Shown: one piece after another, positions 9,710 through 47,521 of the stretch
Position numbering within the stretch: position 1 is the stretch's first letter
Layout of the letters: each line of letters starts with the position of its first letter
Source of the DNA: Escherichia coli
GTDB lineage: Bacteria; Pseudomonadota; Gammaproteobacteria; Enterobacterales; Enterobacteriaceae
Reading direction: 5' to 3' (one strand)
Length of the DNA stretch: 64,000 nt
Assembly (NCBI RefSeq): GCF_051903065.1
Contig: NZ_CP178438.1
Translations under genes and position numbers: made by a program
The notes under the pieces: generated by a model
What the model was told of the DNA's origin: nothing
What the model saw: only the letters and a program-made list of their open reading frames with translations
Databases searched by the model: none

Positions 9710-9720
9710 TAGCACCTCCT

Positions 9721-9729
9721 GAGCAGGCA
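9721..9729. repeat. Left copy of 9-bp target-site duplication (GAGCAGGCA) flanking IS1
   Basis: Identical 9-mer immediately precedes the IS1 left end and follows its right end (10498-10506). Confidence 0.85.
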
Positions 9730-9784
9730 GGTGATGCTGCCAACTTACTGATTTAGTGTATGATGGTGTTTTTGAGGTGCTCCA

Positions 9785-10060
9785 GTGGCTTCTGTTTCTA
9801 TCAGCTGTCCCTCCTGTTCAGCTACTGACGGGGTGGTGCGTAACGGCAAAAGCACCGCCGGACATCAGCGCTATCTCTGCTCTCACTGCCGTAAAACATG
9901 GCAACTGCAGTTCACTTACACCGCTTCTCAACCCGGTACGCACCAGAAAATCATTGATATGGCCATGAATGGCGTTGGATGCCGGGCAACAGCCCGCATT
10001 ATGGGCGTTGGCCTCAACACGATTTTACGTCACTTAAAAAACTCAGGCCGCAGTCGGTAA
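9785..10060 (+). CDS. insA: IS1 InsA
   Basis: 91 aa [39 protein letters not shown]... zinc-finger/HTH; GTG start. Confidence 0.9.
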
Positions 10061-10482
10061 CCTCGCGCATACAGCCGGGCAGTGACGTCATCGTCTGCGC
10101 GGAAATGGACGAACAGTGGGGCTATGTCGGGGCTAAATCGCGCCAGCGCTGGCTGTTTTACGCGTATGACAGGCTCCGGAAGACGGTTGTTGCGCACGTA
10201 TTCGGTGAACGCACTATGGCGACGCTGGGGCGTCTTATGAGCCTGCTGTCACCCTTTGACGTGGTGATATGGATGACGGATGGCTGGCCGCTGTATGAAT
10301 CCCGCCTGAAGGGAAAGCTGCACGTAATCAGCAAGCGATATACGCAGCGAATTGAGCGGCATAACCTGAATCTGAGGCAGCACCTGGCACGGCTGGGACG
10401 GAAGTCGCTGTCGTTCTCAAAATCGGTGGAGCTGCATGACAAAGTCATCGGGCATTATCTGAACATAAAACACTATCAATAA
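9979..10482 (+). CDS. insB: IS1 InsB frame (expressed as InsAB' transposase by -1 frameshift)
   Basis: 167-aa ORF overlapping insA 3' end in the -1 frame. Confidence 0.85.
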
Positions 10483-10497
10483 GTTGGAGTCATTACC

Positions 10498-10506
10498 GAG
10501 CAGGCA
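10498..10506. repeat. Right copy of 9-bp target-site duplication (GAGCAGGCA)
   Basis: Direct repeat of 9721-9729. Confidence 0.85.
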
Positions 10507-10865
10507 ATGGCCACCGTTTATCTAACAGTGGCCATTTGATTTGAGGAAATGATGAAACATTATTCAGAAAATTAATTTAAAAAAACCATTCCTTAAGTCA
10601 AATATATATAAACGCCGAATAGCGATTAAATCCTTCTCAAAGAATGCACTGATAACATTGTGTTATTTTTATTGCCTCATTTTTCTCACTCACTTATAGT
10701 TGGTCCCTGCTGGCAGTAATTTAGTCATTTCAGAGATTTTTACTCTGATGTGCACTTACTGACTTATCTCACAAGTAATTTTTTCTCTAAATAAAGAATA
10801 GTGATGCCAGCAATTACAGTTAAAACTTGCTTTACTCGTAAAAACAATACTTTAATGGGGTTCTA

Positions 10866-11255
10866 ATGAGACATTACATGAAATGGTTTGCGGCTATTGC
10901 TGTTGTGGGTGCTTTAGCGGGTTGCGCGCGTACTGCGCCAATTGATCAGGTTCACTCAACCGTCAGCGCTGGTCATACCCAGGAACAAGTGAAAAAAGCG
11001 ATTCTGAAAGCTGGCGTTGAACGCAAATGGATTATGTCCGAAGCCGGACAAGGCATAATTAAAGCACGTCAACAGTCACGCGATCATTCAGCGGAAATAC
11101 GCATTAACTACACGGCATCCAGCTACGATATCAATTATGAAAATAGCCAGAACCTTCAAGCGTCAGGCGGACAAATTCATAAAAACTACAATCGCTGGGT
11201 CCGCAATCTCGACAAAGATATTCAACTGAATTTGTCAGCGGGCGCAGATTTATAA
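10866..11255 (+). CDS. Putative lipoprotein, first gene of the biosynthetic island
   Basis: 129 aa with signal peptide and lipobox (VGALAGC); preceded by a 360-bp AT-rich leader. Confidence 0.6.
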   Translation: MRHYMKWFAAIAVVGALAGCARTAPIDQVHSTVSAGHTQEQVKKAILKAGVERKWIMSEAGQGIIKARQQSRDHSAEIRINYTASSYDINYENSQNLQASGGQIHKNYNRWVRNLDKDIQLNLSAGADL

Positions 11256-11314
11256 TTCCTCCTAAAGTCGGGCCGTTGCGGTCCGATAATAATTTAATTC
11301 CCTCTTAACAGGTT

Positions 11315-12382
11315 GTGCCCAACATGTACGAACAGGATTCTCTTAGCGCACTGGATGCGATTACCGAAGCTCAACGCATTGCCTTTGCCCCTATGCTTTT
11401 TCAAACAGCACTCTGCCTACGTAATGCGGGTGTACTTTCATATCTGGATCGGCAAGGCAAACATGGCGCAACGCTGGCTGATATCACCGAACATAGCCAT
11501 ATCAACGAATATGCTGCCAGCGTTCTGTTAGATATGGGCTTAAGCGGGCGAATTATTACCTGTAAAGAGGGAATTTATTACCTGGCGAAAATCGGTCATT
11601 ACCTCCTGCATGACACTATGACTCGCGTGAATATGGATTTCACCCAGGATGTCTGTTACCAGGGGCTCTTCTTCCTCGCCGATTCACTCAATGAAGGAAA
11701 ACCTTCCGGGTTAAAAGTATTTGGCGACTGGTCGACGATATATCCGGCACTTTCGCAATTACCAGACGCCGCTCGTGAAAGCTGGTTTGCGTTTGATCAT
11801 TACTATTCAGATGGCGCATTTAACGCCGCACTGCCTTATGTATTCGCCAACAACCCCACAACATTGTACGATGTAGGCGGCAATACGGGTAAGTGGGCTT
11901 TGCGTTGCTGCAAATACAATGAAAACATCGCCGTGACGTTATTAGATCTGCCACAACAAATCGTACTAGCGAAAGAAAATATCGCGAATGCAGGTTTTTC
12001 TGATCGCATAGATTTCCATGCGGTGGATATGCTAAGCGATGCCCCATTACCGGGCGAGGCTGATATCTGGTGGATGAGCCAATTTTTAGACTGTTTTTCA
12101 CCCGAACAAATAATTAGCATACTCAGCAAAATTGCCAGCGTAATGAAGCCTGGCGCAAAAGTTTGCATCATGGAGTTGTTCTGGGATGCGCAGCGGTTTG
12201 AAGCAGCATCGTTTAGCCTGAACGCGTCCTCACTTTATTTTACCTGCATGGCAAACGGTAACAGCCGTTTCTATAGTGCAGAGAAATTTTACGACTATCT
12301 GAATAAAGCAGGATTCCAGGTAGCAGAGCGCCACGATAATTTAGGCGTTGGGCATACACTTTTGATATGCCAAAAGAAATAA
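11315..12382 (+). CDS. Class I SAM-dependent methyltransferase (ApeB-like)
   Basis: 355 aa with glycine-rich SAM motif LYDVGGNTGKWAL; alternative ATG start at 11324. Confidence 0.8.
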   Translation: MPNMYEQDSLSALDAITEAQRIAFAPMLFQTALCLRNAGVLSYLDRQGKHGATLADITEHSHINEYAASVLLDMGLSGRIITCKEGIYYLAKIGHYLLHDTMTRVNMDFTQDVCYQGLFFLADSLNEGKPSGLKVFGDWSTIYPALSQLPDAARESWFAFDHYYSDGAFNAALPYVFANNPTTLYDVGGNTGKWALRCCKYNENIAVTLLDLPQQIVLAKENIANAGFSDRIDFHAVDMLSDAPLPGEADIWWMSQFLDCFSPEQIISILSKIASVMKPGAKVCIMELFWDAQRFEAASFSLNASSLYFTCMANGNSRFYSAEKFYDYLNKAGFQVAERHDNLGVGHTLLICQKK

Positions 12383-12422
12383 TCGTCACTTAATAATTTT
12401 GGTTTACCGCGGGCGCGCGTTG

Positions 12423-13145
12423 ATGAAATTTACATTAAATATTACCGACTGGCAGGCACTGGCGCCTGGACTTAGCGAAGCGCAGCAATGGCAAGCATGG
12501 TCGCGCCAGCCGTGGGCGATTGACCCTGCCGCGCCGTTGGCAAAATTAAGTGAACTGCCAATGATGACCGCCCGCCGCCTCAGTTCAGGCAGCAAACTGG
12601 CTGTTGAATGCGGTCTGGCAATGCTACGCCGCCATCAGCCAGACGCCGTTTTGTATACCAGTCGTCATGGCGAACTGGAGCGCAATTACCGCATTGTTCA
12701 TGCACTGGCAACCGAACAGGCGCTTTCTCCGACCGACTTCGCGCTCTCCGTACACAACTCTTCCGTGGGTAACCTGACCATTGCGGCCAAACAGCCGATC
12801 GTTTCGTCATCGCTTTCGGCTGGTCGCGACACTTTCCAGCAAGGTTTGTGTGAAGTGCTTAGCCTGTTACAAGCGGGATACCAGCGCGTGCTGATGGTCG
12901 ATTTTGACGGTTTCCTGCCCGAGTTTTATCACCCACAACTGCCATCAGAAATGCCGACCTGGCCGTACGCCGTCGCGCTGGTGATTGAAGCTGGCGATGA
13001 GTGGCAATGTGAAACGCAGTCAGCCATTGCGGGCAATGAAACAACACTGCCGCAAAGCATGTTGTTTTTACAGCACTATTTACAAAATGTAGACACATTT
13101 TCACTGCCTGGCGAGCGCGTGCAATGGCGCTGGAGCCACAGATGA
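12423..13145 (+). CDS. Ketosynthase N-terminal-domain-like protein, possible chain-length-factor partner (ApeC-like)
   Basis: About 240 aa, thiolase-like N-terminal half only; lacks the HGTAT and GHTLGA catalytic His motifs present in the two full ketosynthases of the island; start taken at ATG 12423. Confidence 0.6.
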   Translation: MKFTLNITDWQALAPGLSEAQQWQAWSRQPWAIDPAAPLAKLSELPMMTARRLSSGSKLAVECGLAMLRRHQPDAVLYTSRHGELERNYRIVHALATEQALSPTDFALSVHNSSVGNLTIAAKQPIVSSSLSAGRDTFQQGLCEVLSLLQAGYQRVLMVDFDGFLPEFYHPQLPSEMPTWPYAVALVIEAGDEWQCETQSAIAGNETTLPQSMLFLQHYLQNVDTFSLPGERVQWRWSHR

Positions 13146-13963
13146 GTAAGCTGATGTCACGTCTGGAGTGGACCTGGCGACTGGTCATGACCGGGTTATG
13201 TTTTGCCCTGTTTGGTCTCGGCGGCCTGCTGCTTTCTGTCGTGTGGTTTAACATATTGTTAGTTTTGGTGTGGGATACTTCCCGCCGCCGTCGTTTGGCG
13301 CGTCGCAGCATTGCCGCCAGTTTTCGCCTGTTTTTAACTGTCGCGAAAGGGCTTGGCGTGCTGGATTATCGTATTGATGGCGCTGAAATTTTACGTCAGG
13401 AACGCGGTTGCCTCGTCGTAGCCAATCATCCCACGCTGATCGATTACGTGCTGCTGGCGTCAGTCATGCCAGAAACTGACTGCCTGGTGAAAAGCGCACT
13501 GTTAAAAAATCCTTTTCTTGGCGGCGTCGTGCGGGCGGCAGATTATTTAATCAACAGCGAAGCTGAAACCCTGTTACCCCGCTGCCAACAGCGACTGGCA
13601 CAGGGTGACACTATCCTGATTTTCCCCGAAGGCACACGAACGAAGCCCGGTGAAAAAATGACGCTGCAGCGCGGGGCGGCGAATATTGCCGTGCGCTGCG
13701 CCAGCGATTTACGCATCGTGACAATCGGCTGTAGCGAGCATCTGCTGGATAAACAAAGTAAATGGTATGACGTTCCACCTGACCGGCCGTTTTTTACGGT
13801 TGCAGTCCATGGTCGGGTTGAAATCAATAAATTTTACGATGCAACTTCACAAGAACCGGCGCTGGCAGCAAGGCAGTTAAACCGGCATCTTTTGCTTCAA
13901 TTACAACAAGGTTGTTTACCTCTCTCAGGAATAAATAATGCAAGCGCTTTATCTGGAAATTAA
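13142..13963 (+). CDS. Lysophospholipid (PlsC-type) acyltransferase (ApeD-like)
   Basis: HX4D motif (NHPTLID) and FPEGTRT motif; N-terminal TM helix; ATG overlaps upstream stop (ATGA). Confidence 0.8.
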   Translation: MSKLMSRLEWTWRLVMTGLCFALFGLGGLLLSVVWFNILLVLVWDTSRRRRLARRSIAASFRLFLTVAKGLGVLDYRIDGAEILRQERGCLVVANHPTLIDYVLLASVMPETDCLVKSALLKNPFLGGVVRAADYLINSEAETLLPRCQQRLAQGDTILIFPEGTRTKPGEKMTLQRGAANIAVRCASDLRIVTIGCSEHLLDKQSKWYDVPPDRPFFTVAVHGRVEINKFYDATSQEPALAARQLNRHLLLQLQQGCLPLSGINNASALSGN

Positions 13964-14195
13964 AAACCTCATCATCAGCACCCTCAATCTGGACGAGTTG
14001 ACGCCTGATGATATCGATACCGACGCGCCGCTGTTTGGCGACGGTTTAGGGCTGGACTCTATCGATGCCCTGGAACTGGGACTGGCAGTAAAAAATGAGT
14101 ACGGCATCGTGCTCTCTGCGGAAAGCGAAGAGATGCGTCAGCACTTTTTCTCCGTCGCCACTCTGGCCTCTTTCATTGCTGCGCAACGTGCCTGA
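13938..14195 (+). CDS. Acyl carrier protein 1
   Basis: 85 aa with phosphopantetheine-attachment motif LGLDSIDALEL. Confidence 0.8.
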   Translation: MQALYLEIKNLIISTLNLDELTPDDIDTDAPLFGDGLGLDSIDALELGLAVKNEYGIVLSAESEEMRQHFFSVATLASFIAAQRA

Positions 14196-14206
14196 GGAAA
14201 GCCATC

Positions 14207-14458
14207 ATGACAGAACAACAAACCGTCTATCAGGAAGTCTCAGCCCTGCTGGTTAAGCTGTTTGAAATCGATCCGCAGGACATCAAACCTGAAGCGCGCC
14301 TGTACGAAGATCTGGAACTGGACAGCATCGACGCCGTTGACATGATTGTGCACCTGCAAAAGAAAACCGGTAAGAAAATCAAGCCGGAAGAGTTTAAAGC
14401 AGTGCGTACAGTCCAGGATGTCGTCGAGGCTGTAGAACGCCTGCTACAAGAAGCCTGA
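14207..14458 (+). CDS. Acyl carrier protein 2
   Basis: 83 aa with LELDSIDAVDM; GAGGAAAG Shine-Dalgarno. Confidence 0.85.
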   Translation: MTEQQTVYQEVSALLVKLFEIDPQDIKPEARLYEDLELDSIDAVDMIVHLQKKTGKKIKPEEFKAVRTVQDVVEAVERLLQEA

Positions 14459-14462
14459 TCTG

Positions 14463-15044
14463 ATGTCGGGCATTCGCTCGCTACCGATGATTAAGCTGCT
14501 GACTGGATTATTGCTGCTCGCCTGGCCGTTTGTGATTTGGTTTGGCTTAGCGCATAACGGCCTGCACTGGCTGTTACCGCTAATGGCGTTGCTGCTTTTG
14601 TTGCGTCTGCGCCAGACCCGTCGCCAGGCGGGGCCTTTACAAGCCGTCACGCAACTCGTCGCTGTCGTGGGCATCGCATTATGTGTCGCCAGCTTTATGT
14701 TGAAAACGCACCAGCTACTGCTGTTTTACCCGGTAGTGGTTAACGCGGTCATGCTGGCGGTTTTTGGCGGTTCGCTGTGGTCGGCAATGCCGATAGTTGA
14801 GCGGCTGGCGCGGTTGCAGGAGCCAGACCTCCCGGAAAAGGGCGTGCGCTATACCCGCCACGTCACGCAAATCTGGTGCGGCTTTTTCATCATTAACGGT
14901 GGAATTGCCCTCTTTACCGCGCTTTATGCCGATATGTCGTTATGGACCGCCTGGAACGGCATGATTGCTTATTTGTTGATGGGGACGTTAATGGCTGGTG
15001 AATGGCTGGTGCGCCGCCAGGTTATGAAAAGAGATCGCGCATGA
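14463..15044 (+). CDS. Integral membrane protein (ApeG-like)
   Basis: 193 aa, several predicted TM helices. Confidence 0.7.
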   Translation: MSGIRSLPMIKLLTGLLLLAWPFVIWFGLAHNGLHWLLPLMALLLLLRLRQTRRQAGPLQAVTQLVAVVGIALCVASFMLKTHQLLLFYPVVVNAVMLAVFGGSLWSAMPIVERLARLQEPDLPEKGVRYTRHVTQIWCGFFIINGGIALFTALYADMSLWTAWNGMIAYLLMGTLMAGEWLVRRQVMKRDRA

Positions 15045-16402
15045 AGCAGACCTTACCGCTTGCACGCTGGCTGACTGCGCCACGCCCTGATGACACACCC
15101 ATTGCGTGGCTGAACGAAAGTACCTGGACGCTGGGCGATTTGCGTCACGATGTCGCGCAACTTATCTGCCGCTTGCAGCAACAGCCGGGTGAACGCTGGG
15201 CGCTGTGCTTTGAGAACAGCTATCTGTTTATCGTTGCCCTGCTCGCCACGCTACACGCCGGAAAAACGCCGGTGCTTCCGGGGCATAACCGTGTTATCCA
15301 GCTTAACGAGCAACGTGAACTTTTTGATGGTGTGCTTAGCGACAGCGAACTTAACTGGCAAGGTTCATTGCTGTTGGTAGCAAGTTCCCCACAAGTCGCG
15401 ACACAATCCTTCACCTTTGCCGCTATAGCGCCAGAGGCTTATATCGAGCTGTTTACCTCCGGTTCCACGGGACAGCCGAAACGGGTGATTAAACCTGTTC
15501 ATTTGCTGGACCGTGAAGCAGAACTGCTGGCTGAACGATTAGGCGCACGTCTGGCGGATTGTCGTGTCATCGGTTCCGTATTGCCGCAGCATTTGTACGG
15601 CCTGACTTTTCGCGTTTTCCTGCCCATGGCGCTGGGATTACCCCTACATGCCGCCATGCTCTGGTATGTCGAACAGTTTGCCGCGTTGAGTCATCAGCAT
15701 CGCTATATCTTCATCAGCAGCCCGGCATTTTTGAAGCGTCTGGATACACAGCTTTCCCCACCGCCCGTTCAGGTGCTTCTCTCTGCTGGCGGTGAGCTAC
15801 CGTGGCAGGATGTACAACACACCGCGAGCTGGCTGCGCGTCTGGCCTGATGAAATCTACGGCAGCACGGAAACCGGCGTCATCGCCTGGCGCTACCGCGA
15901 ACAAGAGCAACGCCGCTGGCTACCCCTCCCAGGTATGCAGTTCCAGGCCGAAGGCGATGCCTTTCGCCTCTTTTCACCGCTGATAGCGGAAGATAACGGC
16001 CTGTTACTCGACGATATCTTACAGTTTAGCGAAGATGGTCAGTTCCATCTGATGGGGCGTCGTGGGCGCATCGTTAAGATTGAAGAAAAACGTATTTCAC
16101 TCCAGGAAGTAGAACAACGTCTACTGGCGCTGGACGGCATTCGCGAGGCGGCGGCAGTTCCCGTTACGCGCGGCGGGCGTCAGAGCATAGGCGTTTTGCT
16201 GGTGCTGGATGACGAAGCTCATCTGCAATGGCAGAACGGCGGCGGGCATAGCCAGGAAATGACCTGGCGGCGTTTACTGCGCCCGACGCTGGAGCCAGTT
16301 GCTATTCCGCGTTACTGGCGCGTTATTGATGAAATGCCAGTAAACAGTATGAACAAGCGTGTCTATGCGCAATTACAGGAGTTATTTCATGAAGCCCCAT
16401 GA
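15041..16402 (+). CDS. AMP-dependent acyl/aryl-CoA or -ACP ligase (adenylation enzyme, ApeH-like)
   Basis: AMP-binding motif FTSGSTGQPKRV; ATG overlaps upstream stop. Confidence 0.85.
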   Translation: MKQTLPLARWLTAPRPDDTPIAWLNESTWTLGDLRHDVAQLICRLQQQPGERWALCFENSYLFIVALLATLHAGKTPVLPGHNRVIQLNEQRELFDGVLSDSELNWQGSLLLVASSPQVATQSFTFAAIAPEAYIELFTSGSTGQPKRVIKPVHLLDREAELLAERLGARLADCRVIGSVLPQHLYGLTFRVFLPMALGLPLHAAMLWYVEQFAALSHQHRYIFISSPAFLKRLDTQLSPPPVQVLLSAGGELPWQDVQHTASWLRVWPDEIYGSTETGVIAWRYREQEQRRWLPLPGMQFQAEGDAFRLFSPLIAEDNGLLLDDILQFSEDGQFHLMGRRGRIVKIEEKRISLQEVEQRLLALDGIREAAAVPVTRGGRQSIGVLLVLDDEAHLQWQNGGGHSQEMTWRRLLRPTLEPVAIPRYWRVIDEMPVNSMNKRVYAQLQELFHEAP

Positions 16403-16742
16403 AATCGAGCGCCATCAGGCACAAACGAATCACCTTGAAATTGTTCTGCATCTCAGGGCGGATCTGTTCTGGTTTCGCGGTCATTTTGCCGTGCAACCAT
16501 TACTCCCAGGAGTTGCGCAAATCGATTGGGCGATGAGCTACGCGCTCAATCTGCTCGCGCCTGGCTGGCGTTTTCACTCCATTCAGAACATAAAATTCCA
16601 GTCTCCGTTGCTGCCGGAAAACCGCGTCACGCTCGCGCTTAACTGGCAGGAAGAACGCCAGATTCTGAGCTTTAGCTATCAGCGTCACGACGGTGACGCC
16701 CGCCACACCGCCAGTAGCGGGAAGATACGCCTATGTCGGTAA
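16389..16742 (+). CDS. Hotdog-fold dehydratase (FabA/FabZ-like)
   Basis: FRGHFAVQPLLPG catalytic-His motif. Confidence 0.75.
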   Translation: MKPHEIERHQAQTNHLEIVLHLRADLFWFRGHFAVQPLLPGVAQIDWAMSYALNLLAPGWRFHSIQNIKFQSPLLPENRVTLALNWQEERQILSFSYQRHDGDARHTASSGKIRLCR

Positions 16743-18409
16743 ACTTTTCTCCCTGCGTGTTGATCCCCTGCTACAACCACGGCGCGATGATGCCGGGCGT
16801 GCTGGCGCGTCTTAAGCCATTTAATCTGCCCTGTATTGTGGTGGACGACGGCAGCGATGCCGCCACGCAACAGCAACTGGACAGTCTGCTTGCCGAACAG
16901 CCTGGCGTGACCTTAATCCGCCTGGCAGAAAACGCAGGCAAAGGCGCGGCAGTGATGCGTGGCTTACAGGCAGCGGCAGACGCAGGGTTCAGCCATGCGG
17001 TGCAGGTGGATGCTGACGGTCAACATGCGATTGAAGATATCCCCAAACTGCTGGCACTCGCTGAACAACACCCTGCGGCGCTGATCTCCGGCCAGCCAAT
17101 TTACGATGACTCCATCCCCCGCTCACGGCTTTACGGGCGCTGGGTCACCCACGTCTGGGTATGGATCGAAACGCTCTCCCTGCAACTGAAAGACAGCATG
17201 TGCGGCTTTCGCGTTTATCCGGTTGCGCCAACGCTGCAACTGGCAAAACACGCCACCATCGGCAAGCGGATGGATTTCGACACTGAAGTGATGGTGCGCC
17301 TCTACTGGCAGGGAAACACCAGCTATTTCGTGCCGACCCGCGTCACCTATCCACTGGACGGGCTTTCGCATTTTGATGCCCTGAAAGATAACGTCCGCAT
17401 CTCGCTCATGCACACGCGTCTGTTTTTCGGCATGTTGCCGCGTATTCCTTCACTACTGATGCGCCGCTCTTCCAGCCACTGGGCGCGGCAGAGTGAAGTG
17501 AAAGGATTATGGGGAATGCGCCTGATGCTGCTGGTCTGGCGTCTGCTGGGAAGAACGGCGTTTAGCGCGCTGCTTTACCCGGTGGTGGGCGTCTACTGGC
17601 TCACTGCTGCTCGTGCGCGCAAAGCGTCGCAAGACTGGCTCGCCCGTGTACGACAGCATCAACCACAGGCGGCAAAACTCAACAGCTATCAGCACTTTCT
17701 ACGTTTCGGTAATGCCATGCTCGACAAAATCGCCAGCTGGCGCGGCGAGCTACAACTGGGGCACGATGTGCTGTTTGCGCCAGGCGCAGAAGCGGCGCTT
17801 GACGTCAGCGATCCGCGCGGCAAATTGCTGCTGGCCTCGCATCTTGGCGATGTGGAAGTGTGCCGGGCGCTGGCAAAAATTCAGGGCTACAAAACCATTA
17901 ACGCGCTGGTGTTTAGCGAAAACGCCCAACGCTTTAAACAGATAATGCAGGAGATGGCTCCTCAGGCAGGTATTAACCTGATGCCGGTAACAGATATCGG
18001 CCCGGAAACCGCCATCCTGCTGAAAGAGAAGCTGGATAACGGCGAATGGGTGGCGATTGTCGGTGACCGCATCGCCGTCACCCCGCAACGCGGCGGCGAC
18101 TGGCGCGTCTGCTGGAGTCCGTTTATGGGCCAGCCTGCGCCCTTCCCACAGGGGCCGTTTATTCTCGCGTCTATTTTGCGCTGCCCGGTGAATCTGATTT
18201 TCGCCCTGCGCCAGCGCGGCAAGCTGCATATTCACTGCGAAACCTTTGCCGACCCGCTGCTGTTGCCGCGTGGCGAACGCCAACAGGCGCTGCAAAACGC
18301 TATCGACCACTACGCCGCGCGTCTGGAACATTACGCGCTCCAGTCGCCCCTCGACTGGTTTAATTTTTTCGATTTCTGGCAACTGCCGGAAATTCAGGAC
18401 AAGGAGTAA
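16733..18409 (+). CDS. Two-domain glycosyltransferase family 2 / LpxL-type lipid acyltransferase fusion (ApeJ-like)
   Basis: N-terminus VVDDGSDAATQ and VDADGQH (GT2 DXD); C-terminal half resembles lauroyl/myristoyl acyltransferases. Confidence 0.8.
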   Translation: MSVNFSPCVLIPCYNHGAMMPGVLARLKPFNLPCIVVDDGSDAATQQQLDSLLAEQPGVTLIRLAENAGKGAAVMRGLQAAADAGFSHAVQVDADGQHAIEDIPKLLALAEQHPAALISGQPIYDDSIPRSRLYGRWVTHVWVWIETLSLQLKDSMCGFRVYPVAPTLQLAKHATIGKRMDFDTEVMVRLYWQGNTSYFVPTRVTYPLDGLSHFDALKDNVRISLMHTRLFFGMLPRIPSLLMRRSSSHWARQSEVKGLWGMRLMLLVWRLLGRTAFSALLYPVVGVYWLTAARARKASQDWLARVRQHQPQAAKLNSYQHFLRFGNAMLDKIASWRGELQLGHDVLFAPGAEAALDVSDPRGKLLLASHLGDVEVCRALAKIQGYKTINALVFSENAQRFKQIMQEMAPQAGINLMPVTDIGPETAILLKEKLDNGEWVAIVGDRIAVTPQRGGDWRVCWSPFMGQPAPFPQGPFILASILRCPVNLIFALRQRGKLHIHCETFADPLLLPRGERQQALQNAIDHYAARLEHYALQSPLDWFNFFDFWQLPEIQDKE

Positions 18410-18412
18410 AGG

Positions 18413-18835
18413 GTGCTTAACGATCCCCGATTTACCGCTGAAGTCGAGCTGACCATTCCCTTTCACGACGTCGATATGATGGGCGTGGCCTGGCACGGTA
18501 ACTATTTTCGCTACTTTGAAGTGGCCCGCGAGGCGCTGCTCAACCAGTTCAATTACGGCTATCGGCAGATGAAAGAGTCCGGTTATTTGTGGCCAGTGGT
18601 CGATGCGCGGGTGAAATATCGCCACGCTCTCACCTTTGAGCAACGCATCCGCGTGCGTGCGCATATCGAAGAGTTCGAAAACCGTCTGCGGATTGGCTAT
18701 CAGATTTTCGATGCCGAAACGGGCAAACGCGCCACCACCGGATACACCATTCAGGTCGCGGTCGACGAGCAAAGCCGCGAACTGTGCTTTGTCAGCCCCG
18801 ATATTCTGTTTGAACGCATGGGAGTCAAACCATGA
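18413..18835 (+). CDS. 4HBT/YbgC-type acyl thioesterase
   Basis: GTG start 7 nt after AAGGAG; HDVDMMGVAWHGNYFRYFE hotdog thioesterase signature. Confidence 0.8.
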   Translation: MLNDPRFTAEVELTIPFHDVDMMGVAWHGNYFRYFEVAREALLNQFNYGYRQMKESGYLWPVVDARVKYRHALTFEQRIRVRAHIEEFENRLRIGYQIFDAETGKRATTGYTIQVAVDEQSRELCFVSPDILFERMGVKP

Positions 18836-19437
18836 AATTTTTACCGCTGCTGGCGCTGCTGATTAGCCCGTTTGTGAGCGCCCTGACCCTGGACGATCTT
18901 CAACAACGTTTTACCGAACAGCCGGTGATCCGCGCCCATTTCGATCAAACCCGGACGATTAAAGATCTGCCGCAGCCGCTGCGATCTCAGGGCCAGATGT
19001 TGATCGCCCGCGACCAGGGGTTATTGTGGGATCAAACCTCACCGTTCCCCATGCAACTATTACTGGACGATAAACGCATGGTGCAGGTGATCAACGGTCA
19101 GCCGCCGCAAATCATCACGGCAGAAAATAACCCGCAGATGTTCCAGTTTAACCACCTGCTGCGCGCGCTGTTCCAGGCCGATCGCAAAGTGCTGGAACAA
19201 AACTTCCGCGTCGAATTTGCCGACAAAGGCGAAGGCCGCTGGACGCTGCGCCTGATGCCGACCACCACGCCACTGGATAAAATTTTCAACACCATCGATC
19301 TCGCCGGGCAAACCTATCTGGAGAGCATTCAGCTTAATGATAAACAGGGCGATCGCACCGATATTGCTCTTACCCAACATCAACTGACACCAGCGCAACT
19401 GACCGATGACGAACGCCAACGTTTTGCCGCCCAGTAA
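18832..19437 (+). CDS. LolA-like outer-membrane lipoprotein carrier protein
   Basis: 201 aa with signal peptide; size and position between thioesterase and MMPL transporter as in APE clusters. Confidence 0.7.
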   Translation: MKFLPLLALLISPFVSALTLDDLQQRFTEQPVIRAHFDQTRTIKDLPQPLRSQGQMLIARDQGLLWDQTSPFPMQLLLDDKRMVQVINGQPPQIITAENNPQMFQFNHLLRALFQADRKVLEQNFRVEFADKGEGRWTLRLMPTTTPLDKIFNTIDLAGQTYLESIQLNDKQGDRTDIALTQHQLTPAQLTDDERQRFAAQ

Positions 19438-21724
19438 ACGCCCCGCGCTGTTATGGGGGCTAGTCTGCCTGGTCATGGCGGCGGCGTTGCTGATCCTGCT
19501 GCCGCAATCACGGCTGAACAGTAGCGTGCTGGCTATGTTACCCAAACAGGCGATGGGCGATATTCCCCCAGCGCTGAATGACGGCTTTATGCAGCGTCTG
19601 GACCGCCAACTGGTGTGGCTGGTCAGCCCCGGTAAAGAGGCTAATCCCAGGGTCGCTCAGGAGTGGCTGACGCAGCTGCAAAAATCCGCTGCGCTTGGCG
19701 ACATTAAAGGGCCAATGGATGCCGCCAGCCAGCAGGCGTGGGGAGCGTTTTTCTGGCAGCACCGCAACGGCCTGATTGACCACGACACCCGCGCCCGCCT
19801 GCAAAACGGCGGCGAAGCGCAGGCGCAGTGGATCCTCTCCCAGCTTTATTCTGCATTCTCCGGGGTAAGCGGCAAGGAGCTGCAAAACGATCCGCTGATG
19901 TTAATGCGCGGCTCGCAGCTGGCGATGGCAAAAAATGGCCAGCGTTTGCGGCTGATGGACGGCTGGCTGGTGACGCAGGATCCCCAGGGCAACTACTGGT
20001 ATCTGCTGCACGGCGAACTGGCGGGATCGTCGTTTGATATGCAGCAAACCCACCAGCTCATCACGACCCTGAATACGCTGGAAAAGGATCTGAAAACGCG
20101 TTACCCACAGGCGCAGTTGCTCTCGCGCGGCACGGTATTTTACAGCGATTACGCCAGTCAACAGGCGAAGCAGGATATCTCAACCCTGGGCGTGGCAACG
20201 CTGCTGGGGGTGATATTGCTGATTGTGGCGGTGTTCCGCTCTTTGCGCCCGTTGCTGCTTTGCGTGATTTCCATCGGCATCGGCGCGCTGGCGGGAACGG
20301 TCGCCACTTTATTGATTTTCGGTGAATTACACCTGATGACGCTGGTGATGAGCATGAGCGTTATCGGCATTTCCGCTGACTACACGCTCTATTATCTCAC
20401 CGAGCGGATGGTTCACGGCAACGACGTTTCGCCGTGGCAAAGCCTGGCGAAAGTACGCAATGCCTTGCTACTGGCGCTGCTCACCACCGTGGCGGCGTAT
20501 CTGATTATGATGCTCGCCCCCTTCCCCGGCATTCGCCAGATGGCGATTTTTGCCGCCGTCGGGTTGAGCGCCTCCTGTCTGACCGTCCTGTTCTGGCATC
20601 CGTGGCTGTGCCGTGGCCTGCCGGTGCGTCCGGTTCCGGCGATGGCGCTGATGCTACGCTGGCTGGCAGCGTGGCGGCGTAATAAAAAACTGTCGCTGGG
20701 TCTGCCCGTCGCGCTGGCGCTGTTTTCGCTGGCGGGGATGTCAATGCTACGCGTCGATGACGATATCTCGCAGTTACAGGCGCTACCGCAGCATATTCTG
20801 GCGCAGGAAAAAGCCATTACCGCCCTGACCAGGCAGAGCGTCGATCAAAAATGGTTTGTGGTTTACGGCGATTCGCCACAGCAAACATTGCGGCGACTGG
20901 AGAAATATACCGCCTCACTTGAGTATGCGAAAAAAGAGGGGCTTATCAGCAACTACCGCACCATTCCGCTGAACTCCCTTGCGCGGCAGGAGGAAGATTT
21001 ACAACTGCTGAAAACGGCGGCCCCGACAGTAACAAAAGCGCTGCAAAATGCCGGGCTGACGGCAGTGAACCCGGATCTCAACGCCATGCCAGTGAACGTT
21101 GATGAATGGCTGGCAAGCCCCGCCAGTGAAGGCTGGCGTCTGCTGTGGCTGACGCTGGAAAACGGCGAAAGCGGCGTACTGGTGCCGGTTGAAGGGGTTA
21201 AAAGTAGCGCGTTGATGCAGGAAATCGCCAGCTATTACCCTTGCGGCATTGCCTGGGTTGATCGCAAAAGCACCTTTGATGAATTGTTCGCACTTTACCG
21301 TTATGTCTTAACCGGCTTGTTGCTGGTGGCGCTGGCGGTGATTGCCTGCGGCGCAGTGGCCCGTCTCGGCTGGCGCAAAGGGCTTATCAGCCTGGTGCCT
21401 TCGGTGCTTTCGCTGGGCTGCGGTCTGGCGGTGCTGGCGATGAGCGGGCAGGCGGTGAATATCTTTTCGCTTCTGGCGCTGGTGCTGGTGCTTGGCATCG
21501 GCATCAATTACACGCTGTTTTTCAGTAATCCGCGCGGCACACCGTTAACTTCGCTACTGGCGATCACACTGGCAATGCTCACCACCTTGCTGACGCTGGG
21601 AATGTTGGTATTCAGCGCCACCCAGGCCATCAGCAGTTTTGGCATTGTGCTGGTGAGCGGTATTTTCACCGCCTTCCTGCTTTCGCCGCTGGCTATGCCC
21701 GATAAAAAGAGAACAAAAAAATGA
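19406..21724 (+). CDS. MMPL/RND-superfamily exporter
   Basis: 772 aa with two clusters of TM helices separated by soluble loops. Confidence 0.8.
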   Translation: MTNANVLPPSKRPALLWGLVCLVMAAALLILLPQSRLNSSVLAMLPKQAMGDIPPALNDGFMQRLDRQLVWLVSPGKEANPRVAQEWLTQLQKSAALGDIKGPMDAASQQAWGAFFWQHRNGLIDHDTRARLQNGGEAQAQWILSQLYSAFSGVSGKELQNDPLMLMRGSQLAMAKNGQRLRLMDGWLVTQDPQGNYWYLLHGELAGSSFDMQQTHQLITTLNTLEKDLKTRYPQAQLLSRGTVFYSDYASQQAKQDISTLGVATLLGVILLIVAVFRSLRPLLLCVISIGIGALAGTVATLLIFGELHLMTLVMSMSVIGISADYTLYYLTERMVHGNDVSPWQSLAKVRNALLLALLTTVAAYLIMMLAPFPGIRQMAIFAAVGLSASCLTVLFWHPWLCRGLPVRPVPAMALMLRWLAAWRRNKKLSLGLPVALALFSLAGMSMLRVDDDISQLQALPQHILAQEKAITALTRQSVDQKWFVVYGDSPQQTLRRLEKYTASLEYAKKEGLISNYRTIPLNSLARQEEDLQLLKTAAPTVTKALQNAGLTAVNPDLNAMPVNVDEWLASPASEGWRLLWLTLENGESGVLVPVEGVKSSALMQEIASYYPCGIAWVDRKSTFDELFALYRYVLTGLLLVALAVIACGAVARLGWRKGLISLVPSVLSLGCGLAVLAMSGQAVNIFSLLALVLVLGIGINYTLFFSNPRGTPLTSLLAITLAMLTTLLTLGMLVFSATQAISSFGIVLVSGIFTAFLLSPLAMPDKKRTKK

Positions 21725-22305
21725 TCAAATCCACATTCTGGCGAGCGTTCGCCCTGACCGCTACGCTTATCCTCACCGGCTGTAGCCACTCGCAACCAGA
21801 ACAGGAAGGCCGCCCGCAGGCGTGGCTGCAACCTGGCACGCGCATCACGCTGCCGGCACCAGGGATTTCACCCGCAGTCAATTCGCAGCAACTGTTGACC
21901 GGCAGCTTCAACGGCAAAACCCAGTCGCTGCTAGTAATGCTTAACGCCGACGACCAGAAAATCACCCTTGCCGGGCTGTCGTCGGTCGGCATTCGCCTGT
22001 TTCTGGTGACCTACGATGCAAAAGGGCTACGCGCCGAGCAATCCATCGTCGTCCCGCAGTTGCCGCCCGCAAGTCAGGTGCTGGCTGACGTAATGCTCAG
22101 CCACTGGCCGATTAGCGCCTGGCAACCGCAACTTCCCGCAGGATGGACACTTCGCGACAACGGTGACAAACGCGAGCTGCGTAACGCCAGCGGCAAACTG
22201 GTCACGGAAATCACCTATCTGAATCGCCAGGGAAAACGCGTGCCAATCAGCATTGAGCAGCATGTCTTTAAATACCACATCACCATTCAATACTTAGGTG
22301 ACTGA
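21721..22305 (+). CDS. Lipoprotein (DUF3261-like)
   Basis: Lipobox LTGCSHS; ATGA overlap with upstream gene. Confidence 0.65.
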   Translation: MIKSTFWRAFALTATLILTGCSHSQPEQEGRPQAWLQPGTRITLPAPGISPAVNSQQLLTGSFNGKTQSLLVMLNADDQKITLAGLSSVGIRLFLVTYDAKGLRAEQSIVVPQLPPASQVLADVMLSHWPISAWQPQLPAGWTLRDNGDKRELRNASGKLVTEITYLNRQGKRVPISIEQHVFKYHITIQYLGD

Positions 22306-22306
22306 T

Positions 22307-23476
22307 ATGATTTATATTTCCGCCGTCGGCATGATCAACGCCCTGGGAAATAACCTTGACGAAATCGCAGCCAACCTGGCTCGCGGTGTCGCCCCCGGAA
22401 TGCGCCCACGCGCAGGCTGGTTGCAGGGGCATCCGCAGGCGGTCCTGGCTGGCGTGGATGGCGAGCTTCCGCTTATCCCGGAAAAATTCGCTGCGCATCG
22501 CTCGCGCAACAATCAGATCCTGCTGGCGGCGCTGGCGCAGCTCCAGCCGCAGGTTGATGACACTATAGCGAAATATGGTCGCGAGCGCATCGCGATTGTA
22601 CTTGGCACCAGCACCTCCGGCCTGCATGAAGGCGACACGCACGTTAACCTGCGCACCCACGGGCAGCCGAGCACCACATGGCATTACGCGCAACAGGAAC
22701 TCGGCGATCCGTCGCGTTTTCTCAGCCACTGGCTGGCGCTCGACGGCCCGGCTTATACCCTTTCAACCGCCTGCTCCTCCAGCGCCAGAGCGATGATCAG
22801 CGGGCGCAGGCTTATCGAGGCGGGGCTGGTCGATGCCGCCATTGTGGGTGGCGCAGACACCCTGAGCCGGATGCCGATTAACGGTTTTCACAGCCTCGAA
22901 TCGCTGTCGCCAACCTTATGTCAGCCGTTCGGTCGTGACCGCGCAGGTATCACCATTGGTGAAGGGGCGGGGCTAATGCTGCTGACCCGCGAACCGCAGC
23001 CCATCGCATTGCTGGGCGTTGGTGAATCGAGCGACGCTTACCATATTTCAGCTCCGCATCCGCAGGGCGAAGGAGCGATCCGCGCTATTAATCAGGCGCT
23101 GACCGATGCGCAGCTTACGCCGGATGACGTCGGCTATATCAACCTGCACGGCACCGCCACACAGCTCAACGACCAGATTGAATCAATGGTGGTTAACGCC
23201 CTGTTTGGCGAACGCGTACCGTGCAGCTCCACCAAACATTTGACCGGACACACGCTGGGCGCAGCGGGCATTACCGAGGCGGCAATTAGTATGTTGATTT
23301 TACAGCGTGATTTACCGCTGCCCGCTCAGGACTTCAGCCTGTCGCCGCGCGATCCCACGCTGCCACCGTGTGGCATTATCGAAAAACCGCAGCCGCTGGC
23401 ACGTCCGGTGATCCTGTCCAATTCCTTCGCCTTTGGCGGCAATAACGCCAGCATTCTGCTCGGGAGGGTTTCGTGA
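22307..23476 (+). CDS. Beta-ketoacyl-ACP synthase (ApeO-like)
   Basis: Cys-His-His triad motifs LSTACSSS, LHGTATQ, GHTLGAAG. Confidence 0.85.
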   Translation: MIYISAVGMINALGNNLDEIAANLARGVAPGMRPRAGWLQGHPQAVLAGVDGELPLIPEKFAAHRSRNNQILLAALAQLQPQVDDTIAKYGRERIAIVLGTSTSGLHEGDTHVNLRTHGQPSTTWHYAQQELGDPSRFLSHWLALDGPAYTLSTACSSSARAMISGRRLIEAGLVDAAIVGGADTLSRMPINGFHSLESLSPTLCQPFGRDRAGITIGEGAGLMLLTREPQPIALLGVGESSDAYHISAPHPQGEGAIRAINQALTDAQLTPDDVGYINLHGTATQLNDQIESMVVNALFGERVPCSSTKHLTGHTLGAAGITEAAISMLILQRDLPLPAQDFSLSPRDPTLPPCGIIEKPQPLARPVILSNSFAFGGNNASILLGRVS

Positions 23477-23937
23477 GCCACTATTTATCCCCCGGTGCTT
23501 ATCTGCCCCACGACGCGCCCATGTTACTGCTGGAAGACGTGGTGAGCGTCAGCGATGACAGCGCGGTGTGCCGCGTGACGGTTTCGCCCAGTGGCGTACT
23601 GGCACCGTTTCTCGACCCGGACGGCAATCTCCCCGGCTGGTTTACCCTTGAACTGATGGCGCAAACCGTCGGCGTCTGGTCTGGCTGGCATCGCCACCAG
23701 CAGGGCAAAAACAGTATTGAGTTAGGGATGATACTGGGCGCGCGTGAATTGCTTTGCACCACTGGCATTCTGCCCGCAGGCCAGACGCTGACCATTACCG
23801 TCAAACTGCTGATGCAAGACGATCGCTTCGGCAGTTTTGAGTGCAGCATCAACGACGGCGAGGCAACGGGCCGCATTAACACCTTCCAGCCGACCGCGGA
23901 AGAACTTACCACCCTGTTTCAACAAGGAGCGTCCTGA
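23473..23937 (+). CDS. Hotdog-fold dehydratase (FabA-like)
   Basis: 154-aa hotdog-sized ORF; GTGA overlap with upstream ketosynthase. Confidence 0.7.
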   Translation: MSHYLSPGAYLPHDAPMLLLEDVVSVSDDSAVCRVTVSPSGVLAPFLDPDGNLPGWFTLELMAQTVGVWSGWHRHQQGKNSIELGMILGARELLCTTGILPAGQTLTITVKLLMQDDRFGSFECSINDGEATGRINTFQPTAEELTTLFQQGAS

Positions 23938-24668
23938 TGAGTCGTTCAGTTCTGGTTACTGGTGCCAGCAAAGGCATTGGTCGCGCCATCGCCTGCCAAC
24001 TGGCGGCAGACGGCTTTAACATTGGCGTTCACTATCACCGTGACGCCACAGGCGCTCAGGAAACGCTGAATGCCATTGTCGCCAATGGGGGTAACGGGCG
24101 TTTGCTCAGTTTCGACGTCGCAAACCGCGAACAGTGTCGGGAAGTGCTGGAGCATGAGATCGCGCAACACGGTGCCTGGTACGGCGTGGTCAGTAACGCC
24201 GGGATCGCCCGCGATGCCGCTTTTCCGGCTTTAAGCGATGACGACTGGGATGCGGTGATCCACACCAACCTCGACAGTTTCTACAACGTCATTCAGCCGT
24301 GCATTATGCCGATGATCGGCGCACGCCAGGGTGGGCGCATCATCACGCTATCCTCGGTTTCCGGCGTAATGGGCAATCGCGGCCAGGTGAATTACAGCGC
24401 TGCCAAAGCCGGAATTATCGGCGCAACAAAAGCGCTGGCTATCGAACTCGCGAAGCGCAAAATCACCGTCAACTGCATCGCGCCGGGGCTTATTGATACC
24501 GGGATGATCGAAATGGAAGAGAGCGCTCTGAAAGAGGCAATGTCGATGATCCCCATGAAACGTATGGGCCAGGCGGAAGAAGTTGCCGGGCTTGCCAGTT
24601 ATTTAATGTCTGATATTGCGGGTTACGTCACCCGCCAAGTTATTTCCATCAACGGAGGGATGTTATGA
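23937..24668 (+). CDS. 3-oxoacyl-ACP reductase (FabG-like SDR)
   Basis: TGASKGIGRAIA Rossmann motif, catalytic YSAAK. Confidence 0.9.
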   Translation: MSRSVLVTGASKGIGRAIACQLAADGFNIGVHYHRDATGAQETLNAIVANGGNGRLLSFDVANREQCREVLEHEIAQHGAWYGVVSNAGIARDAAFPALSDDDWDAVIHTNLDSFYNVIQPCIMPMIGARQGGRIITLSSVSGVMGNRGQVNYSAAKAGIIGATKALAIELAKRKITVNCIAPGLIDTGMIEMEESALKEAMSMIPMKRMGQAEEVAGLASYLMSDIAGYVTRQVISINGGML

Positions 24669-25894
24669 CACGTCGCGTAGTGATTACAGGAATGGGCGGC
24701 GTGACTGCCTTTGGTGAAAACTGGCAGGACGTTTCTGCACGCTTACTGGCGTATGAAAATGCGGTGCGCAAAATGCCGGAGTGGCAGGTCTACGACGGGC
24801 TGCACACCCTGCTTGGCGCGCCTGTTGATGATTTCACGCTACCGGAGCACTACACCCGCAAGCGTATCCGTGCGATGGGCCGCGTGTCGCAAATGTCGAC
24901 CCGTGCCAGCGAGCTGGCGTTAGAGCAGGCAGGGTTGATTGGCGATCCGATATTAACCAGCGGCGAAACGGGCATTGCGTACGGTTCATCGACCGGCAGT
25001 ACCGGCCCGGTAAGCGAGTTCGCCACCATGCTGACGGAAAAGCACACCAATAACATCACTGGCACCACCTATGTGCAGATGATGCCGCACACCACCGCCG
25101 TTAATACTGGCCTCTTTTTCGGCCTGCGCGGGCGGGTGATCCCAACCTCCAGCGCCTGTACTTCCGGCAGCCAGGCAATCGGTTATGCGTGGGAAGCCAT
25201 TCGCCACGGTTATCAAACGGTGATGGTTGCTGGTGGTGCCGAAGAGTTATGTCCTTCAGAAGCAGCGGTATTTGATACGCTTTTCGCCACCAGCCAGCAC
25301 AATGATGCGCCGAAAACCACACCTTCACCGTTCGATGAAAACCGCGACGGGCTGGTGATTGGTGAAGGCGCAGGTACGCTCATTCTCGAAGAACTGGAAC
25401 ACGCCAAAGCGCGCGGCGCGACCATTTACGGTGAAATCGTCGGCTTTGCGACGAACTGCGACGCGGCACATATTACCCAGCCGCAGCGCGAAACCATGCA
25501 GTATTGTATGGAGCAATCGCTGAAAATCGCCGGGTTAAGCGCACAAGATATCGGCTATATTTCAGCGCATGGTACGGCGACCGATCGCGGTGATATGGCA
25601 GAAAGTCTGGCGACAGCAACCATTTACGGTGATAATGTGCCGCTCTCCTCGCTGAAAAGTTATTTTGGTCATACGCTTGGTGCCTGTGGCGCGCTCGAAG
25701 CCTGGATGAGTCTGCAAATGATGCGCGAAGGTTGGTTTGCGCCTACGCTAAACCTGAATAAACCAGACCCGAATTGTGGCGCGCTGGATTACATCATGCA
25801 TGAAGCCCGCAAGGTTGATTGTGAGTTTTTACAGAGTAACAACTTTGCCTTTGGCGGCATTAATACATCCATCATCATTAAACGTTGGCCCTGA
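24665..25894 (+). CDS. Beta-ketoacyl-ACP synthase I/II-like (ApeR-like)
   Basis: SSACTSGS, AHGTATDRGD, GHTLGACGA. Confidence 0.9.
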   Translation: MTRRVVITGMGGVTAFGENWQDVSARLLAYENAVRKMPEWQVYDGLHTLLGAPVDDFTLPEHYTRKRIRAMGRVSQMSTRASELALEQAGLIGDPILTSGETGIAYGSSTGSTGPVSEFATMLTEKHTNNITGTTYVQMMPHTTAVNTGLFFGLRGRVIPTSSACTSGSQAIGYAWEAIRHGYQTVMVAGGAEELCPSEAAVFDTLFATSQHNDAPKTTPSPFDENRDGLVIGEGAGTLILEELEHAKARGATIYGEIVGFATNCDAAHITQPQRETMQYCMEQSLKIAGLSAQDIGYISAHGTATDRGDMAESLATATIYGDNVPLSSLKSYFGHTLGACGALEAWMSLQMMREGWFAPTLNLNKPDPNCGALDYIMHEARKVDCEFLQSNNFAFGGINTSIIIKRWP

Positions 25895-25895
25895 T

Positions 25896-26483
25896 ATGTA
25901 TCGGATAGTTCTGGGGAAAGTTTCGACCTTAAGCGCAGCTCCACTGCCACCGGGTTTACGCGAGCAAGCACCGCAAGGTCCACGACGCGAACGCTGGCTG
26001 GCGGGGCGTGCATTGCTTTCGCACACGCTTTCCCCGCTACCGGAGATCATCTATGGCGAACAAGGCAAACCTGCATTTGCGCCGGAAACGCCGCTATGGT
26101 TCAACTTAAGCCATAGCGGTGACGATATCGCCCTGCTGTTGAGTGATGAAGGCGAAGTCGGCTGCGATATCGAAGTGATTCGCCCGCGCGCCAACTGGCG
26201 CTGGCTGGCGAACGCCGTGTTCAGCCTCGGGGAACACGCTGAAATGGACGCCGTGCATCCTGATCAGCAACTGGAAATGTTCTGGCGCATCTGGACGCGC
26301 AAAGAAGCCATCGTTAAACAGCGTGGCGGCAGCGCCTGGCAAATCGTCAGCGTAGACAGCACCTATCACTCCTCGCTGTCAGTCAGCCATTGTCAGCTAG
26401 AAAATTTAAGCCTTGCGATCTGCACCCCCACCCCCTTTACGCTCACCGCCGACAGTGTGCAATGGATCGATTCAGTTAACTGA
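25896..26483 (+). CDS. acpT: 4'-phosphopantetheinyl transferase AcpT
   Basis: Starts MYRIVLGKVSTL 1 nt after the upstream ketosynthase stop; PPTase motifs. Confidence 0.9.
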   Translation: MYRIVLGKVSTLSAAPLPPGLREQAPQGPRRERWLAGRALLSHTLSPLPEIIYGEQGKPAFAPETPLWFNLSHSGDDIALLLSDEGEVGCDIEVIRPRANWRWLANAVFSLGEHAEMDAVHPDQQLEMFWRIWTRKEAIVKQRGGSAWQIVSVDSTYHSSLSVSHCQLENLSLAICTPTPFTLTADSVQWIDSVN

Positions 26484-26529
26484 TCCCGCCCACCCGACTG
26501 CCCATCTATTGATCCAGAACAGGTAATCA

Positions 26530-26557
26530 GTATGACGAATACTTAAAATCGTCATAC
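26530..26557. promoter_or_regulatory. NikR operator upstream of nikA
   Basis: GTATGA-N16-TCATAC dyad (gtatgacgaatacttaaaatcgtcatac). Confidence 0.75.
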
Positions 26558-26594
26558 TTATTTCCGCCATCTATTTTAATCCATTGGGGTTACC

Positions 26595-29109: not shown

Positions 29110-29113
<4 letters not shown>
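28169..29113 (+). CDS. nikB: Nickel ABC permease NikB
   Basis: 314-aa permease, ATGA overlap. Confidence 0.9.
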
Positions 29114-31917
<2,804 letters not shown>

Positions 31918-47473: not shown

Positions 47474-47494
47474 GCGCGCCTTGTTACCTGATTA

Positions 47495-47521
47495 GCGTAA
47501 ACGCCTTATCTGGCCTACGGT
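47495..47521. repeat. REP-like element
   Basis: AACGCCTTATCTGGCCTACG matches the REP consensus. Confidence 0.5.

Follow-up and report, generated by a model that had tools for sequence, protein, structure and literature searches.

A half-size, catalytically dead ketosynthase-like protein of Escherichia coli is very likely the ApeC subunit of an aryl polyene synthase

Introduction

Aryl polyene (APE) gene clusters belong to one of the most widespread families of bacterial biosynthetic gene clusters. According to PMC8253772, APE pigments shield uropathogenic E. coli (UPEC) against oxidative stress and favour the formation of biofilms, which makes the interface between the subunits ApeO and ApeC a conceivable anti-virulence target. 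In E. coli CFT073, the same paper states, most deletions of core ape genes abolish the pigment (PMC8253772).

The ApeC protein is already known and annotated, having been structurally characterised in two species and named in RefSeq. The first structure, from Xenorhabdus doucetiae (Grammbitter et al. 2019), is deposited as 6QSP under the title 'Ketosynthase (ApeO) in Complex with its Chain Length Factor (ApeC) from Xenorhabdus doucetiae' (as returned by Foldseek), and the second, 7F28, is the ApeO-ApeC complex of Acinetobacter baumannii (PMC8358021). In these systems ApeC comprises one thiolase half with no cavity of its own, and residues of both subunits line a single funnel-shaped cavity (PMC8358021). 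A pair of acyl carrier proteins (ACPs) named ApeE and ApeF brings starter and extender units to ApeO-ApeC, which binds holo-ApeE tightly (Kd 7.4e-8 M) and yields the fully elongated polyene by itself in vitro, whereas the further ketosynthase ApeR makes shorter species and raises throughput (PMC8358021, PMC12624758). The A. baumannii ApeR orthologue (7F27) is homodimeric (PMC8358021). Lee et al. described Arg30, Arg31 and Thr83 of the A. baumannii ApeC (AbApeC) as conserved surface residues, the arginine pair being positioned for acidic ACPs (PMC8358021), and a review relates the product length of ApeO-ApeC to pocket depth, as for other pairs of a ketosynthase and a chain length factor (PMC9006962).

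The window analysed in this study is a stretch of 64,000 nucleotides of E. coli DNA (contig NZ_CP178438.1). A first-pass annotation, made from the sequence alone, had described the product of positions 12423-13145 as an inactive ketosynthase homologue and a probable chain-length-factor partner of a full-length ketosynthase encoded at 22307-23476. The present analysis compared this locus with the characterised ApeC proteins, with classical chain length factors and with the catalytic ketosynthases encoded in the same window.

Identification of the gene as apeC

The apeC open reading frame (12423..13145, plus strand) is intact, with an ATG at 12423, a TGA at 13143-13145 and 240 codons, and it has the same coordinates as the RefSeq CDS WP_123003729.1, whose product is named 'beta-ketoacyl synthase chain length factor'; the RefSeq annotation was taken from E. 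coli strain 23CRST027 (NZ_AP045789.1), which differs from the window at 3 bases in 64 kb. A longer alternative begins with a TTG at 12399, and the ATG start agrees with the N-terminus of the crystallised orthologue, Met1 being nearly invariant in the family. The Pfam model PF13723 ('Beta-ketoacyl synthase, N-terminal domain'; Ketoacyl-synt_2) matched residues 23-238 of the 240 over all of its profile positions (1-223 of 223) with an E-value of 8.3e-67, a resemblance to ketosynthases that is far beyond chance. The same Pfam scan found neither PF00109 nor PF02801 in ApeC, both of which are present in ApeO and ApeR, and an NCBIfam search returned no family for the protein. A regular-expression scan of the protein for the HGT, GHxxGA and ACxS motifs found none of the three, which together with the reading frame bears out the earlier description of a 240-aa protein with neither HGTAT nor GHTLGA and adds the catalytic Cys to what is missing. 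The accompanying statement that only an N-terminal ketosynthase-like region is present holds in that a ketosynthase-like domain was found, but not in its implied extent, as PF13723 spans nearly the whole protein; taken as a whole, ApeC is the counterpart of a ketosynthase's first thiolase half.

The comparison with ApeC and the structure prediction that the first-pass annotation had recommended both gave clear results. A PDB sequence search aligned residues 1-238 with residues 1-238 of 6QSP chain B at an E-value of 1e-91, with a weaker match to 7F28 chain A (E 1.6e-14), and BLASTP gave 59% identity to the X. doucetiae protein over 239 aa, which is end to end (the two proteins being 239 and 240 aa in length). 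The AlphaFold model, built on an alignment of 60 sequences, reached a pLDDT of 95.1 and a pTM of 0.92, and in a Foldseek search with this model 6QSP_B ranked first (TM-score 0.94, rmsd 1.6 A). The E. coli and X. doucetiae proteins differ by species-level divergence only. Next came the AbApeC chains (TM 0.67/0.78 for 7F28_A), then the chain length factors of the ishigamide (6KXF_B) and actinorhodin (1TQY_B) pathways, and then FabF-type ketosynthases. The superposition on 6QSP_B, followed by other chains of the ketosynthase family, therefore gave no sign of an unrelated fold, and the predicted model is that of a single thiolase-type half, ketosynthase/thiolase-like in character. The first helix of the X. 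doucetiae and E. coli proteins, some 20 residues at the N-terminus, is missing from AbApeC. The catalytic residues are absent from both orthologues as they are from E. coli ApeC, and all three proteins have the Arg-Arg and S-P-T...S-V-H-N motifs in common.

Each testable property of an ApeC/PF13723 protein was thus found, namely the domain, the homology, the predicted fold, the missing triad, the Arg-Arg and S-P-T residues and the location within an ape cluster. It is very likely that 12423-13145 encodes the E. coli ApeC orthologue, a half-size, catalytically dead subunit of an APE type II polyketide synthase (PKS), and the proposal of an inactive ketosynthase homologue acting as a probable chain-length-factor partner is supported in a more specific form.

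Integrity of the apeC gene

Being some 60% as long as ApeO or ApeR and devoid of all three catalytic motifs, the open reading frame could also be a pseudogene, left over from a full-length ketosynthase after truncation or a frameshift, as the first-pass annotation itself had cautioned. Comparative evidence leaves this explanation next to no probability. The protein aligns end to end with a crystallised protein of 239 aa, and a length near 240 aa is usual among its homologues: close homologues from the Enterobacterales are about 240 aa long and have PF13723 only, the few shorter entries listed being partial. In a search of 1.84 billion representative proteins, ApeC matched 2112 family clusters (at 50% identity), 1004 of them at an E-value of 1e-10 or better, and among the best 150 of the 2112 every member was at most 312 aa long, the full-length ones being about 240 aa.

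The surrounding DNA leads to the same conclusion. A tblastn search with ApeO and ApeR against all frames of 12000-14500 found no remnant of a ketosynthase C-terminal half (best E 0.26), and because of this result the pseudogene reading was rejected. Additionally, the ATG of the next gene, apeD (13142..13963, plus strand; lysophospholipid-acyltransferase family, PF01553), overlaps the apeC stop by 4 bases (ATGA), and therefore there is no room downstream for such a half. The gene is also conserved: of 5426 complete E. coli genomes, 824 have it, in every case on the chromosome. The UPEC-type copy in 'clone D i2' encodes a protein 94% identical to that of the window, and the dN/dS between the two copies of apeC is 0.23, a ratio that, judged from these sequences, indicates purifying selection; it is the highest among six ape genes compared (apeR 0.01, apeO 0.10). 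The description 'truncated' stands for the architecture of the family and does not stand for decay of apeC itself. The outcome is a clean negative, in that a short ketosynthase homologue devoid of the motifs turns out to be no pseudogene and no novel type of protein.

Relation to catalytic ketosynthases and classical chain length factors

Direct sequence comparison between ApeC and catalytic ketosynthases was uninformative throughout. A BLASTP comparison of ApeC with ApeO found no significant match (best E 0.23), the 60-member ApeC alignment fell short of significance in hhalign both against ApeO alone and against an alignment of five ketosynthases rebuilt from PDB alignments (probability 0.4%), and hmmsearch with the ApeC profile against the same five returned scores of at most 2 bits with inconsistent registers. 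The link between ApeC and the ketosynthases therefore rests on the Pfam model, the orthologue structures and the predicted fold. Relative to the FabF, FabB and ApeR homodimers, whose similarity to ApeC escaped all three of these sequence methods, ApeC shares the fold of the first thiolase half and occupies the place of the second monomer, but it has neither the Cys-His-His triad nor a second thiolase half.

Because these pairwise and profile comparisons were not significant, sequence does not tell which ApeC residue takes the place of the catalytic Cys, and a weak local BLASTP alignment that paired Cys156 of ApeO with Asn112 of ApeC was rejected as it clashes with the secondary-structure register. 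In the predicted model a strand at 127-131 is followed by a turn and a helix at 134-150, and the equivalent of the nucleophilic elbow was located only to this strand-to-helix turn, probably residues 132-136 (S-A-G-R-D), with a register uncertain by about 2 residues. Across the 60 aligned family members the turn reads A/S, A, G, a variable residue and D, with no conserved Cys or Gln; Gln occurs at position 135 in only 4 of the 60, and E. coli ApeC has Arg there.

This site is one of several at which ApeC parts from the classical chain length factors (KSbeta), such as that of actinorhodin (1TQY_B), AntE (6SMP) and Iga12 of ishigamide (6KXF_B). The likeness is in fold and assembly: the classical proteins also have a ketosynthase-superfamily fold without the triad, form a heterodimer with an active ketosynthase and contribute to a single pocket at the interface, as seen for ApeC in the orthologue structures. 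The classical KSbeta, however, is a protein of about 350-400 aa with two halves, compared with 240 aa, roughly half that size, and one thiolase half in ApeC (PMC8358021), and the TM-scores of the ApeC model normalised to the target were 0.39 for 1TQY_B (402 aa) and 0.46 for 6KXF_B (360 aa). In the classical proteins Gln replaces the catalytic Cys, whereas ApeC has no conserved Gln at the equivalent position. Classical KSbeta genes lie directly downstream of the KSalpha gene and are often translationally coupled to it (PMC9006962), whereas apeC lies 9.2 kb upstream of apeO and is coupled to apeD. Unlike the classical KSbeta, ApeC belongs to a pathway that resembles fatty acid synthesis, is highly reducing and starts from a 4-hydroxybenzoyl unit. 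The earlier analogy with the chain length factors of type II PKS systems accordingly holds for the way in which ApeC works and fails for its size, its Cys-equivalent site and its gene placement.

Partner ketosynthase and the ape cluster

Two full-length ketosynthases are encoded in the window, both with PF00109 and PF02801, and the earlier statement that both carry the Cys and two His motifs was confirmed by locating all three in each. ApeO (22307..23476, plus strand), the elongating ketosynthase, has Cys156 (TACSSS), His281 (HGTAT) and His315 (GHTLGA), and it matches 6QSP chain A with an E-value of 7.5e-174 and 7F28_B with 2.8e-82. ApeR (24665..25894, plus strand), a second FabB/FabF-like ketosynthase, has Cys165 (SSACTSG), His302 (HGTAT) and His336 (GHTLGA) and matches 7F27_A (E 4.9e-158) and 4EWG_A (E 1e-164). 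With ApeC resembling 6QSP_B and ApeO resembling 6QSP_A, the window thus holds orthologues of both partners of a crystallised heterodimer. ApeO is therefore the predicted partner of ApeC, and the first-pass annotation had chosen the right ketosynthase. ApeR was considered for this role and rejected, being orthologous to the homodimeric AbApeR (7F27), and the crystallised complexes are of ApeO with ApeC.

Both genes lie within a complete aryl polyene cluster, apeA-apeR (10878..25894, plus strand), of 18 tightly packed, co-oriented genes, identified by Pfam scans or by their RefSeq labels. The first nine encode, in order, a lipoprotein, an O-methyltransferase, ApeC, the lysophospholipid acyltransferase, two ACPs, a COG4648 membrane protein, an AMP-ligase and the ApeI dehydratase; the last nine encode a glycosyltransferase, a thioesterase, a LolA-like protein, an MMPL transporter, a DUF3261 protein, ApeO, the ApeP dehydratase, a ketoreductase and ApeR. 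This order agrees with Table 1 of PMC8253772. The tandem ACP genes apeE and apeF (13938..14458, plus strand) were recognised by PF00550, their roles being those given in PMC8358021 and PMC12624758. Intergenic spacings range from -32 to +68 bases, consistent with one operon. The end of apeC lies 9161 bases upstream of the start of apeO, a separation already remarked on by Johnston et al. In the X. doucetiae and A. baumannii systems, as in E. coli, apeC is the first gene of an apeC-D-E-F-G-H block and an ApeO orthologue is encoded in the cluster, and the succession of ApeC, acyltransferase, ACP, ACP and a later ketosynthase also surrounds homologues with 42% and 30% identity to ApeC.

One base after apeR lies acpT (25896..26483, plus strand), annotated in RefSeq as a phosphopantetheinyl transferase. 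Its product is reported to activate both ACPs of the island in O157:H7, and the gene is described as 'orphaned' in K-12, in the passage of PMC8253772 that cites De Lay and Cronan (2006). In function, acpT looks like the last gene of the ape cluster.

Proposed function and the control of chain length

The reading preferred here follows the orthologue systems. By its sequence and predicted model, ApeC folds as one thiolase-type half-domain without the Cys-His-His triad, and it would pair with ApeO (22307-23476) as a pseudo-two-fold heterodimer in which it replaces the second monomer of the FabF/FabB homodimers; the 1:1 assembly is that of the X. doucetiae (6QSP) and A. baumannii (7F28) crystal structures and is extended to the E. 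coli pair by orthology. ApeO would then run iterative decarboxylative condensations of malonyl units onto a 4-hydroxybenzoyl starter carried on ApeE, and residues of ApeC would help to line the one funnel-shaped interface pocket, which would be deep enough for the full hexaene or heptaene length. The condensation and pocket-depth steps draw on orthologue structures, docking and in vitro assays.

Residues that may serve these functions stand out in the family alignment, which comprises 60 diverse members with 28-58% identity to E. coli ApeC, none of them with the catalytic motifs of ketosynthases. Its invariant columns include R51, R52, S102, P103, F106, V110, H111 and N112, and T104 is present in 49 of the 60. 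In the PDB-search alignment with 7F28_A, R51, R52 and T104, all present in E. coli ApeC, correspond to Arg30, Arg31 and Thr83 of AbApeC. The Arg51-Arg52 pair would accordingly form a basic docking surface for the acidic ACPs, a role proposed by the authors of the AbApeC structure and for which the present alignment confirms the conservation. The segment S102-P103-x-x-F106/V110-H111-N112 has no counterpart in the ketosynthase triad, and the literature found on ApeC mentions only its Thr. It may itself be a functional site, one that gates or walls the polyene pocket of ApeO or assists in handling ACP or substrate; this proposal is speculative and rather doubtful, and if it were true, ApeC would actively tune product length or turnover and would not be a passive dimer filler.

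The conservation of His111 and Asn112 in all 60 diverse homologues could alternatively be read as a cryptic catalytic role, such as malonyl-ACP decarboxylation in the manner of the Gln-bearing KSbeta proteins of aromatic polyketide synthases, carried out through this invariant pair. His/Asn pairs drive decarboxylation in KAS III-type enzymes, which counts in favour of such a role. The proposal nevertheless appears very improbable, since the orthologue structure has no active-site cavity in ApeC (PMC8358021), neither a nucleophile nor a Gln is conserved at the elbow-equivalent turn, and ApeH makes the 4-hydroxybenzoyl-ACP that primes the pathway (PMC8253772), so decarboxylative priming is unnecessary.

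Control of chain length is the part of the preferred reading that is supported least directly. That ApeC exerts it is inferred from pocket depth and docking in the orthologue structures (PMC8358021, PMC9006962), and since no mutagenesis of ApeC was found in the literature covered (PMC8358021, PMC8253772, PMC9006962 and PMC12624758), the phrase 'sets chain length' is to be taken as a conclusion from geometry. The possibility arises that ApeC does not control length and that the label 'chain length factor' is a misnomer. ApeC would then be an obligate structural and ACP-docking subunit of ApeO, named by analogy, and the limit on length would come from the ApeO pocket or from polyene rigidity. 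Several observations fit such a role: ApeC lacks a cavity of its own and the arguments from the pocket come from docking and not from mutagenesis (PMC8358021), the surface pair to which ACP binding is assigned is among the best-conserved residues, the turn that matches the ketosynthase active site varies, and apeC has the highest dN/dS of the genes compared. Against it, residues of both subunits line the cavity (PMC8358021), the review ties the product length of ApeO-ApeC to pocket depth (PMC9006962), and the invariant V110-H111-N112 and G116 probably fall, as judged along the linear sequence, where the gatekeepers F116', W107' and L125' of classical chain length factors lie. A purely structural and docking role is on this evidence unlikely, though far from negligible, and the reading in which ApeC helps to shape a length-determining pocket with ApeO is preferred.

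Genomic site and other features of the window

The ape cluster of the window lies at the yhhT-acpT site, whereas the CFT073-type cluster is found at a UPEC island site. At the island's left edge, an IS1A element with a programmed-frameshift transposase (9785-10482) directly separates yhhT from apeA. Only 54 bases lie between yhhT and acpT in K-12 MG1655, so that the window has about 16.2 kb more (IS1 and apeA-apeR; 9710-25895). In UPEC 'clone D i2' (NC_017651.1 1107103-1139825; locus 14448-29469) the same 18-gene cluster occupies another chromosomal site, with IS fragments and pseudogenes on its flanks, among them remnants of hemagglutinin-repeat and ShlB-family genes, and there are therefore at least two insertion sites in E. 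coli. Divergence between the two copies is uneven across window positions 11324-25894, dS ranging from 0.05 (apeO) to 0.31 (apeB) and dN/dS from the apeR value of 0.01 to the apeC value of 0.23; recombination inside the island, or a relaxed constraint acting on the non-catalytic subunit, could account for this pattern.

A more distant ape-like cluster, in CP009238.1 (ApeC 30% identical), shows variation in gene content. Its AMP-ligase and ApeI-like dehydratase are fused in one protein of 573 aa (locus 12574-14295), and a flavin-dependent halogenase-like gene (locus 19214-20455) follows a gene of 762 aa that stands in the position of the MMPL transporter and has no Pfam match on record. The halogenase-like gene suggests a halogenated aryl polyene variant.

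Elsewhere in the window, the annotation of the near-identical reference genome places a hicA/hicB type II toxin-antitoxin pair at about 32037-32668 (minus strand), between nikR and yhhJ, and two overlapping 17-codon CDSs labelled 'hypothetical protein' at about 47480-47570 (minus strand), between uspA and dtpB. A stretch of low GC content at about 38000-42000 (0.34-0.37, compared with about 0.55 in its flanks) carries yhiJ and a second DUF4049 paralogue on the minus strand. A second such stretch, at about 57900-64000 (GC 0.38), contains a frameshifted hypothetical pseudogene (about 57931-59047), slp and dctR, and after slp and dctR the window ends with the heme uptake genes chuS and chuA on the minus strand.
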